NCBI GenBank assembly: GCA_965208735.1
Contig: CBDBPM010000002.1
Span: forward strand, 733,145 to 797,144
Source: Candidatus Poribacteria bacterium
GTDB lineage: Bacteria > Poribacteria > WGA-4E > WGA-3G
Direction of reading: 5' to 3'
Length of the DNA: 64,000 bases
Shown here one piece after another: positions 20,331 to 21,110 of the stretch (positions within the stretch are counted from its first letter, which is position 1; each line of letters opens with the position of its first letter). The position numbers and the translations under genes were made by a program. The notes beneath the pieces were generated by a model that worked only from the letters and a program-made list of their open reading frames with translations, was not told the DNA's origin and searched no databases.

Positions 20331-21110
20331 ATGCGTTTTACATATCTATCCGTTTTTCGATACAACCAGATCTCTCTAAAGACAAAATTTGCTCTTAAAA
20401 TTGTCGTCTCCTTGCTGTGCCTCGGCATAGCGACGCAAGCATCAGCAGAACTGCTGTTTCACGACGATTTTGAGAAAGATAATATCGGGGATGAACCGAG
20501 CAAATGGGAAGTCGGATTCGACGGTGCAACAACCGCTAAAGTCGTCGCTGATCCGAAAAAAGCGAGCAACAAAGTTCTGCTAACCTCTGACAAAGGTTCA
20601 AACGCTTCACGGCACGATGTCGGCGGCTCCATCTATGTCGTCGGTGACGCAGGGTGGGACGATTACGTCGCTGAATGGGATATGATGTTCCCCGACGATT
20701 TCTACATGGGTGTTGTTTTCCGTTTTCAAGAGGGCGAAAAATTCTATCTCAGCGACCGGCGGCAAGGCGGTAGAGATTACCATTTCTACAAACGCCAAGG
20801 CGGTTGGGCACAAGTCCAAGCTGGACTGGTGGAAAACGAACCCGAAGTCTGGTATCGCGCACAACTGATCCTTGATGGAGACAAATTCACCTTCAAATTA
20901 AAAGAGCGAAAGGACAATCGTTCGTTTAACAAAATCGATCCGGCGACCGAAGGTGGAGACGGAAACTTCAAAACCGGTCAGTTCGGCAACTACGGACTCG
21001 TCTATATCGACAACCTCTTTATCGGCGATTCCGTTGAAGACCTCGTTCTACCTGTCGAACCACAGGATAAACTAAGCACGACATGGGGCACCCTCAAAGC
21101 CTCTTATTAA
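20331..21110 (+). CDS. Secreted concanavalin-A-like/LamG-type (DUF1080-like) protein with conserved C-terminal KLSTTWGTLK tail
   Basis: The start is trimmed to ATG 20331 (RBS aaggagaag), giving a signal peptide MRFTYLSVF..ASAELLFHDDFE, which is typical of DUF1080/3-keto-disaccharide-hydrolase-like jelly-roll proteins. The C-terminus is VEPQDKLSTTWGTLKASY. Confidence 0.55.
   Translation: MRFTYLSVFRYNQISLKTKFALKIVVSLLCLGIATQASAELLFHDDFEKDNIGDEPSKWEVGFDGATTAKVVADPKKASNKVLLTSDKGSNASRHDVGGSIYVVGDAGWDDYVAEWDMMFPDDFYMGVVFRFQEGEKFYLSDRRQGGRDYHFYKRQGGWAQVQAGLVENEPEVWYRAQLILDGDKFTFKLKERKDNRSFNKIDPATEGGDGNFKTGQFGNYGLVYIDNLFIGDSVEDLVLPVEPQDKLSTTWGTLKASY

Follow-up and report, generated by a model that had tools for sequence, protein, structure and literature searches.

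A conserved C-terminal peptide on otherwise unrelated exported-type proteins of Poribacteria that looks like a targeting or docking tag

Poribacteria are dominant uncultured symbionts of sponges whose cell envelope and secretion are largely obscure. In a stretch of 64,000 nucleotides from a Candidatus Poribacteria bacterium (contig CBDBPM010000002.1; the whole 64-kb stretch is called the window below), four open reading frames (ORFs) each end in the same short peptide, and the locus raises the question of what a common tail of about 15 residues does at the extreme C-terminus of otherwise unrelated proteins. A preliminary description of the window had drawn attention to this tail and had suggested that it marks a distinct secretion, anchoring or processing route. 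Our analysis of its sequence, its carriers and its distribution leads us to conclude that the tail is, on balance, probably a functional C-terminal tag that is under selection at the level of the peptide and is read in trans for targeting or docking. No description of the motif was found in the literature searched, and its features suggest a type of targeting or docking tag that has yet to be described.

Sequence, position and distribution of the tag

The four ORFs and the tails reported for them in the preliminary description are all present in the sequence (Table 1). A regular-expression scan of all six frames of the window with K[LIVM]...W[GAS].[ILVM]K gave exactly four matches, each located 3-6 residues ahead of the stop codon of an ORF of at least 259 codons, and the short core W[GA].[ILVM]K returned the same four sites only. 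A degenerate DNA pattern that encodes V-x-P-x-x-K-L-x-x-x-W-[GA]-x-[LIMF]-K also matched the window four times, as compared to a mean of 0.00 matches in 100 dinucleotide-preserving shuffles.

The same DNA pattern was run over 185,579 bacterial and archaeal species, each represented by one genome, and was found at 120 or more loci. Among the matches listed, 112 are labelled Candidatus or uncultured Poribacteria, 7 belong to metagenome-assembled genomes (MAGs) named "uncultured bacterium" and 1 belongs to Lacticaseibacillus. The loci listed stem from about 83 genomes as counted by isolate names, and these include MAGs from sponges, the original single-cell genome WGA-3G and several MAGs whose names suggest sources other than sponges (B28_G17 Guaymas, SpSt-970 and Arabian9). 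The position of the motif is strict, with 149 of the 150 pattern matches in these loci ending 1-12 residues before a stop codon, most commonly at a distance of 3 (71 cases). The sole exception among the matches listed is the one in Lacticaseibacillus, a chance match that lies 284 residues from the stop, so that all poribacterial matches listed (149/149) are C-terminal. Several loci can stem from a single genome (for example L039, L044 and L062 from OZ241980.1), and tandem arrays of 2-4 tagged paralogues are frequent.

As a control, the pattern was also run over 2.9 million viral contigs, where it gave 14 matches that follow no positional rule and several of which have stop codons within the motif. 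One of these contigs, IMGVR_UViG_2740892559_000001 (locus L132, positions 453-497, minus strand), encodes a LamG protein of the typical tagged form, which has a signal peptide and ends in ...LPVEPQGKLATQWADLKRSVR; the contig is probably poribacterial chromosomal DNA or the flank of a provirus in IMG/VR.

A search that is free of the pattern constraint extends this set considerably. A profile built from 35 tails matched 428 clusters (at 50% identity) at E <= 0.001 among 1.84 billion representative proteins, and the tag lies within 12 residues of the C-terminus in 140 of the 147 best additional matches. All 44 of these matches that reach 180 aa are 180-347 aa long, and most start with a hydrophobic segment that resembles a signal peptide. 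An alignment-based homologue search with the four 45-aa tails recovered only 11 short orthologue fragments. The preliminary description had called for a scan beyond the window and had allowed that the motif might be absent from other secreted proteins; it is instead found on many other exported-type proteins. Judged by the strict pattern and among the matches listed, the tag is specific to the phylum Poribacteria and occurs almost nowhere else.

Alignment of 148 non-redundant tails gives the consensus [L/T/F]-[A/P/S]-V-[E/D/S]-P-x-[G/D]-K-L-[A/T/S]-T-T-W-[G/A]-x-[L/I]-K, for which LAVEPSGKLATTWGSIKSR is a representative peptide. Positions that the search pattern leaves free are also conserved, with T at +8 in 100 and at +9 in 110 of the 148 tails, E or D at +1 in 97 and G or D at +4 in 89. 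The final K is followed by 1-12 residues, most often 3, of which 17% are R and 11% are K. In 62 of 148 tails the chain ends in R or K, with no consistent Arg cluster. When the ends of ORFs at these loci were searched with relaxed criteria, 33 further variants came to light, in which P is changed to A, L to V, I or T, or K to R. Within orthologues of one window carrier, LamG3, the V, K, W and K are retained at 100% and the E, P, T and T at 94-99%.

Because the motif always sits at the 3' end of genes, it could conceivably be a feature of the DNA or RNA, such as a repeat, a terminator or a regulatory site, that is translated by chance. The codons speak strongly against this explanation. Third codon positions are near maximum entropy, at 1.7-2.0 bits for nearly all tag codons (about 0.9 for Lys and 0 for Trp), while first and second positions are fixed at key tag residues. 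Additionally, the tag Leu is encoded by CTN as well as TTR codons, and the four window copies are no more alike in their nucleotides than the encoded amino acids dictate. Near-random third positions next to fixed first and second positions imply selection on the peptide and not on a DNA or RNA element, and we regard a nucleotide-level element as effectively refuted, with next to no probability left to it.

The tag does not correspond to a catalogued domain. When ten isolated tails were compared to Pfam at E <= 10, no model covered the tail, the sole match being a meaningless one to WSK (E = 0.22), and no Pfam or NCBIfam model extended over the tail when whole carrier proteins were searched. 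A profile search of the PDB with the tail gave non-significant matches only. Among these, a strand of an NHL blade in peptidylglycine amidating lyase (3fvz_A, residues 172-183, SPSGKFVTQWGE) resembles the tag core (E = 0.49, not significant). The resemblance could hint that the tag stems from a blade of a propeller, or that it complements a strand in trans; as no tail has a Pfam NHL match, we mention this only as a remark.

Carrier diversity, folds and export

Full-length carriers were recovered in 130 cases, and these are 203-443 aa in length with a median of 263 aa. Single-linkage BLAST clustering (1e-5) of the sequences left between signal peptide and tail divides them into 35 clusters. Thirty cluster representatives were assigned to Pfam families that include Laminin_G_3, 3keto-disac_hyd (DUF1080), CBM9_1, CBM_4_9, NPCBM, F5_F8_type_C (discoidin), a DUF3108-like family, PD40 and Kelch, with sub-threshold matches of the BNR/YCF48-like kind and with about twelve representatives that have no Pfam match. 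The carriers are thus small, single-domain proteins from at least ten distinct Pfam families, and where Pfam finds a match it is mostly to a domain of the binding type or to a beta-propeller. The earlier suggestion that the tail is a modular element common to unrelated secreted proteins therefore holds across the phylum.

The four carriers in the window illustrate this diversity. Pfam supports the domains previously proposed for three of them, with Laminin_G_3 scores of 83.6 and 67.8 bits for carriers 2 and 3 (LamG2 and LamG3) and a PD40 score of 90.4 bits for carrier 4; the label "LamG-like" that had been given to carrier 1 is not sustained, since its best match is sub-threshold, to the lectin-like Glyco_hydro_59_C (E = 0.0024). 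The tag is kept in orthologues of carrier 1 at three other loci (L034, L044 and L087), in the orthologue fragments P0001-P0009 of carrier 2 and in 119 of the 120 listed orthologues of carrier 3. One of the carrier 2 orthologues, at locus L001, was called as a 74-aa C-terminal fragment (P0008), which may point to a frameshift in the gene as assembled there. An IS200/IS605-type pair composed of a Y1 transposase and an OrfB/TnpB-like gene (6497..7975 of that locus, plus strand) is located some 2 kb upstream of this orthologue.

The tail lies outside of the recognizable folds, as the preliminary description had claimed on fewer data. The Laminin_G_3 model is matched in full (151/151) by both LamG proteins, with the match ending at residue 232 in LamG3 and at the position given in Table 1 for LamG2, which is 10-13 residues ahead of the tag. 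AlphaFold2, run with alignments, models the PD40 carrier as a confident propeller (mean pLDDT, the predicted local distance difference test score, of 89.7) whose last strand extends to residue 316, while the tail has pLDDT below 50 at residues 322-330 and is otherwise a detached helix of low confidence (326-338). For LamG3, pLDDT exceeds 90 within the fold, as it does in the propeller, up to about residue 242, and falls below 50 at residues 247-262; the modeled fold resembles the lectin-type jelly-rolls of neurotoxin Hc-N, sialidase lectin domains and GH43 domain 4. Homologues of the PD40 carrier provide a natural comparison, as 83 of the 120 listed have the tag and 37 do not. The untagged ones include proteins named for Gaiellaceae and Anaerolineae, and those that are full-length stop at or just after the last blade motif. 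Despite its predicted disorder the tail is conserved much like a fold core, with a column entropy among LamG3 orthologues of 0.54 for the tag as compared to 0.51 for the LamG domain and 1.11 for the linker, and with values in the PD40 family of 1.26 for the tag versus 1.87 for the propeller.

These results also bear on whether the tail is simply the closing strand or helix of a single cryptic domain present in all carriers. Three of the four window carriers are beta-sandwich proteins of similar size, as such an explanation would predict. However, the carriers as a whole have unrelated folds (three kinds of beta-propeller, ConA-like, CBM9, CBM4_9, NPCBM and discoidin), the Laminin_G_3 match is complete ahead of the tag, AlphaFold2 closes both modeled folds without the tail, and homologues named for other phyla do without it. 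The specific version raised in the preliminary description, a terminal strand of a single family with a cryptic LamG-like domain in the PD40 protein, was tested and is not what we find. A structural element of this kind is extremely unlikely and effectively refuted. Predicted disorder combined with core-like conservation on unrelated folds is instead the signature of a short linear motif that is read in trans.

The composition of the tail is of interest with regard to membranes. Its mean hydrophobicity is near zero and its net charge is about +2. There is no stretch that resembles a transmembrane segment in the last 35 residues, where the best 15-residue Kyte-Doolittle mean averages 0.52, and the V-x-P part is followed by only about 10 residues, with K, T, T, G and K among them. 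This bears out the earlier statement that a transmembrane helix is lacking. A more subtle association would be that of a short helix lying on phospholipid head groups at the periplasmic face of a membrane, as do the amphipathic helices at the C-termini of PBP5/6 or the membrane-targeting sequence of MinD. The low-confidence helices that AlphaFold2 places at residues 326-338 (PD40) and 255-258 (LamG3) are compatible with such an anchor, as are the invariant Trp, the flanking Lys residues and the positive net charge. Helical and strand hydrophobic moments (at 100 and 170 degrees) are not above those of shuffled tags, however, with a helical value of 0.29 versus 0.28. Furthermore, the core comprises only about 10 residues, and the position-specific conservation of V, P, K, T-T-W-G and K throughout the phylum is far stricter than lipid-binding helices need. 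We consequently hold a membrane-interface anchor to be decidedly improbable.

Nearly all carriers have the N-terminus of an exported protein. Signal peptides were called by a lenient, home-made hydrophobicity rule (not by SignalP) and by N-terminal helices in the AlphaFold2 models. With the heuristic, 125 of 130 tagged ORFs (96%) begin with a segment that resembles a signal peptide, as compared to 193 of the 534 other ORFs of 150 aa or more that these loci contain (odds ratio 44, Fisher p = 4e-40), which is the enrichment that the preliminary description had proposed to look for. Genes for LpxK and LpxB, which function in lipid A synthesis, adjoin one another in the window (Table 1) and indicate that the organism has an outer membrane that contains lipopolysaccharide.

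Table 1. Tagged carriers, their tags and other features of the window discussed in the text
Feature	Position	Strand	Description
Carrier 1	20331..21110	+	Exported-type protein, 259 aa; no significant Pfam match; signal-peptide-like N-terminus ending ...CLGIATQASA; C-terminal end ...LPVEPQDKLSTTWGTLKASY before the stop
Tag of carrier 1	21054..21107	+	VEPQDKLSTTWGTLK then ASY; stop codon 21108-21110
Carrier 2 (LamG2)	37937..38740	+	Exported-type Laminin_G_3 protein, 267 aa; Pfam match up to residue 237, tag from residue 247; C-terminal end ...AVQPTGKLSLTWGRIKATQSDR before the stop
Tag of carrier 2	38675..38737	+	VQPTGKLSLTWGRIK then ATQSDR; stop codon 38738-38740
Carrier 3 (LamG3)	52611..53399	+	Exported-type Laminin_G_3 protein, 262 aa; lectin-type jelly-roll fold; C-terminal end ...MPVEPSDKLATTWASIKSRQ before the stop
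Tag of carrier 3	53343..53396	+	VEPSDKLATTWASIK then SRQ; stop codon 53397-53399
Carrier 4	17175..18194	-	Exported-type PD40 beta-propeller, 339 aa; C-terminal end ...YVSPKGKLTGLWGRIKQME before the stop
Tag of carrier 4	17178..17231	-	VSPKGKLTGLWGRIK then QME; stop codon 17175-17177
HtrA-like protease	2658..4079	+	Trypsin_2 and PDZ domains
Small TPR protein	4388..5104	+	Follows the HtrA-like protease
ORF of 854 aa	9907..12471	+	Sub-threshold DDE transposase match
LpxK and LpxB	12545..15057	-	Lipid A synthesis
Large multidomain protein	22949..26785	+	1278 aa; C-terminal domain like that of type IX secretion substrates

Proposed function and the search for a partner

From the features described above we infer recognition in trans and a function in targeting or docking. 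In the model that we propose, the tag is attached by a short linker to small, Sec-exported, single-domain proteins whose unrelated folds include beta-sandwiches of the lectin type, beta-propellers and domains of the CBM type. Once its carrier has been exported by Sec, the tag would remain a flexible, exposed peptide, and a common partner in the cell envelope would bind it in trans, so that many cargoes are served by one partner. Candidates for the partner would be a receptor, a scaffold or a processing enzyme, and its binding would localize the carriers to the periplasm, the outer membrane or the cell surface. The tag could then either be cleaved, as a sorting signal, or be retained, as a docking peptide.

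Several observations weigh against this reading. No partner, receptor or processing enzyme was found in the neighborhoods of the 120 or more loci. There is no confident canonical enzyme family among the carriers, the sole exception by name being the hydrolase-named 3keto-disac_hyd (DUF1080), and no carrier is longer than 443 aa or is a large multidomain protein, which is unusual for a general secretion signal. Additionally, the lenient signal-peptide heuristic flags 36% of control ORFs as well, and the absence of the tag from other phyla is judged by a strict pattern among the matches listed. Given small carriers that lack canonical enzymes, docking or oligomerization fits equally well. The interpretation given in the preliminary description thus holds insofar as the tag is modular, lies outside of the fold, has no transmembrane segment and is distinct from type IX secretion signals; the function itself we infer, and docking or oligomerization would satisfy the same data.

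The case for oligomerization would be that tags bind each other to form homo- or hetero-oligomers, thereby joining lectin-like modules into multivalent assemblies that need no separate receptor. Multivalency would be useful to small carriers with binding-type or propeller domains, tagged paralogues often occur in tandem arrays of 2-4, and no separate partner is seen in the neighborhoods. AlphaFold2 models of single chains predict no stable structure for the tag, however, and a peptide that is 10-15 residues long and on average neither hydrophobic nor hydrophilic (mean near zero) has little to drive its self-assembly. Self-association is therefore an unlikely explanation. Small carriers of the binding or propeller type, together with the use of a C-terminal domain like that of type IX secretion substrates by larger secreted proteins, lead us to lean toward docking or display and away from a general secretion route.

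The neighborhoods themselves contain 501 untagged ORFs in the 120 or more loci, and among these there is no dedicated recurrent family. The neighbors that do recur belong to families that are common in Poribacteria, namely phyH, WD40, Gfo/Idh/MocA, TPR and sulfatase. By sequence the commonest are phyH-like (phytanoyl-CoA dioxygenase), with 31 ORFs in 24 loci among the matches listed. Genes and gene clusters of the phyH family in Poribacteria have been tabulated (Kamke 2014, PMC3909097), and the phyH neighbors probably reflect the abundance of the family and not a functional link.

Two families of neighbors deserve mention as weak leads. The first is composed of secreted TPR proteins, mostly of about 530 aa and 22-69% identical to one another, that are located a few kb from tagged genes at eight of the loci listed (L006, L032, L045, L085, L097, L100, L101 and L108). 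TPR domains are known to read C-terminal peptides elsewhere, as does PEX5 with peroxisomal targeting signal 1 (PTS1), and these proteins may be candidate readers of the tag; TPR proteins are abundant in Poribacteria, so their proximity may be due to chance. The second is a family of multi-pass membrane proteins that lie beside tagged genes at L016, L076, L079 and L083, the last of which has three tandem copies. Members of this family are about 470-505 aa long, and both their N-terminal and their C-terminal segments are hydrophobic.

The window also contains a gene for an HtrA-like protease with Trypsin_2 and PDZ domains that is followed by a small TPR protein. Both PDZ and TPR domains can bind C-terminal peptides, and both are widespread. 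A protease of this type, or of the Prc/CtpA type, would be needed were the tag a periplasmic degron, a quality-control signal or a peptide that activates the protease, and PDZ proteases do in general read C-terminal peptides. Classical PDZ ligands are nevertheless read from the terminal carboxylate, and those of Prc are non-polar, while the motif may lie anywhere from 1 to 12 residues ahead of the free C-terminus, and the chain ends in variable residues that are either polar or basic. Moreover, HtrA and Prc are near-universal in contrast to a tag that is specific to one phylum, and there is no evident reason why a degron should be restricted to small, mostly binding-type proteins. Such a role is very unlikely. 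Among the remaining genes of the window, the 854-aa ORF has a sub-threshold match to a DDE transposase (22.3 bits as compared to a cut-off of 23) and may encode a transposase that is unusual or has degenerated.

A targeting or docking tag read in trans could be part of something larger. We tentatively suggest, as a possibility that we rate well below an even chance, that the tag serves as an address label for a poribacterial pathway of envelope sorting or surface display that is as yet undescribed. This label would be soluble, non-tripartite and about 15 residues long, and it would be recognized by a dedicated reader in the periplasm or outer membrane that exports, anchors or processes the carriers. 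The pathway would run parallel to the route taken by proteins with a C-terminal domain of the type IX kind.

With at least 428 clusters (at 50% identity) that end in one strictly conserved peptide, the tag defines a coherent group of proteins that probably have one location and one partner in common. If a dedicated machine reads it, the tag would add a class of bacterial C-terminal sorting signal that has no membrane-spanning segment, and the tagged proteins would be those by which these symbionts may bind glycans of the host or the environment. The motif is a near-diagnostic marker of poribacterial DNA in metagenomes and also supplies a peptide of defined sequence that can serve as bait in pull-downs and AlphaFold-Multimer screens. 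Finally, its tryptic core L-[AST]-T-T-W-[GA]-x-[IL]-K offers a metaproteomic read-out of whether the tag is retained or cleaved.

Comparison with known C-terminal signals

Seven attributes of small C-terminal sorting domains have been listed by Haft (10.1101/2023.06.07.544157). The poribacterial tag has five of them, namely its location at the C-terminus, its occurrence several times in one genome, a signature with invariant residues, carriers that begin with signal peptides and the absence of any other relationship among many of these carriers. The number of copies per genome is judged from the four in the 64-kb window, from multiple loci in single genomes and from the tandem arrays. The tag lacks the transmembrane segment, and its Arg- and Lys-containing end described above, in which no consistent Arg cluster is seen, corresponds only loosely to the basic cluster of two to five mostly Arg residues.

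The tag is similar to the signals of the PEP-CTERM/exosortase, GlyGly-CTERM/rhombosortase, MYXO-CTERM/myxosortase, PGF-CTERM/archaeosortase and, by analogy, LPXTG/sortase systems in its location at the extreme C-terminus and in its many copies per genome. Like the tripartite sorting domains, it is a lineage-restricted element on signal-peptide proteins that are otherwise unrelated, and it has a short signature with invariant residues followed by an end that is enriched in basic residues. Even its V-E-P start recalls the P-E-P of PEP-CTERM. Unlike in the tripartite domains, the basic residues are scattered and the invariant residues occur along the full length of 15 residues and not at its start alone. 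We therefore rejected the tag as a tripartite signal for an exosortase, rhombosortase, myxosortase or archaeosortase, as there is no transmembrane segment, and for the same reason an intramembrane protease cannot be the reader of the tag.

A second comparison is with the C-terminal domain (CTD) of the type IX secretion system (T9SS). The preliminary description had distinguished the tag from this domain and had placed a T9SS CTD on the large multidomain protein of the window, and both statements are substantiated. No tail matches TIGR04183 or PF18962, and a tail of 18-21 aa with pLDDT below 50 is far shorter than a folded domain of 70-100 aa; the tag was accordingly rejected as a T9SS CTD. The large protein, on the other hand, scores 29 bits with TIGR04183 (cut-off of 23) and 32 bits with FlgD_ig. 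It is composed of WD40 repeats, an M6-like metalloprotease motif, leucine-rich repeats, Big_1, Dockerin_1 and the T9SS-like CTD. Large secreted poribacterial proteins with a T9SS-like CTD have been reported, and T9SS-type CTDs are present in Poribacteria while T9SS structural genes were not found (Kamke 2014, PMC3909097). Both elements are C-terminal signals on Sec-exported proteins of a diderm, occur in the same genome and are modular across carrier families. They differ in that the CTD folds into an Ig-like domain, with a length of about 70-100 aa and no sequence similarity to the tag, and in that its carriers can be large (1278 aa in the window) as compared to the 203-443 aa of tag carriers.

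In the way that it may act, the tag is analogous to the cargo-loading peptides of encapsulins and to PTS1, which is read by PEX5. In each case a C-terminal peptide of about 10-15 residues is joined by a short linker to unrelated cargo and is bound by one partner in trans. The encapsulin and PTS1 systems differ from the tag in being cytoplasmic, with cargo that has no signal peptides, and they have no sequence relationship to it. A cargo peptide for encapsulins or microcompartments was rejected because nearly all carriers have signal peptides; microcompartment genes are present in Poribacteria (Kamke 2014, PMC3909097). Within the window, the Dockerin_1 domain on the large multidomain protein scores 37.6 bits (cut-off of 22.9) and suggests that cohesin-like scaffolds may exist; no cohesin-like partner was identified.

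The dockerin-cohesin system of cellulosomes is nonetheless an instructive parallel. There too, a modular C-terminal element is located on secreted, glycan-related modules, and this element assembles the modules on a scaffold. A dockerin is a calcium-binding domain of about 60-70 aa, unlike the 15-aa tag, which has no dockerin similarity. Taken by mode of action, the poribacterial tag would thus appear to be closest to two kinds of known system, the short cargo-targeting peptides that are carried on linkers and docking of the dockerin type.

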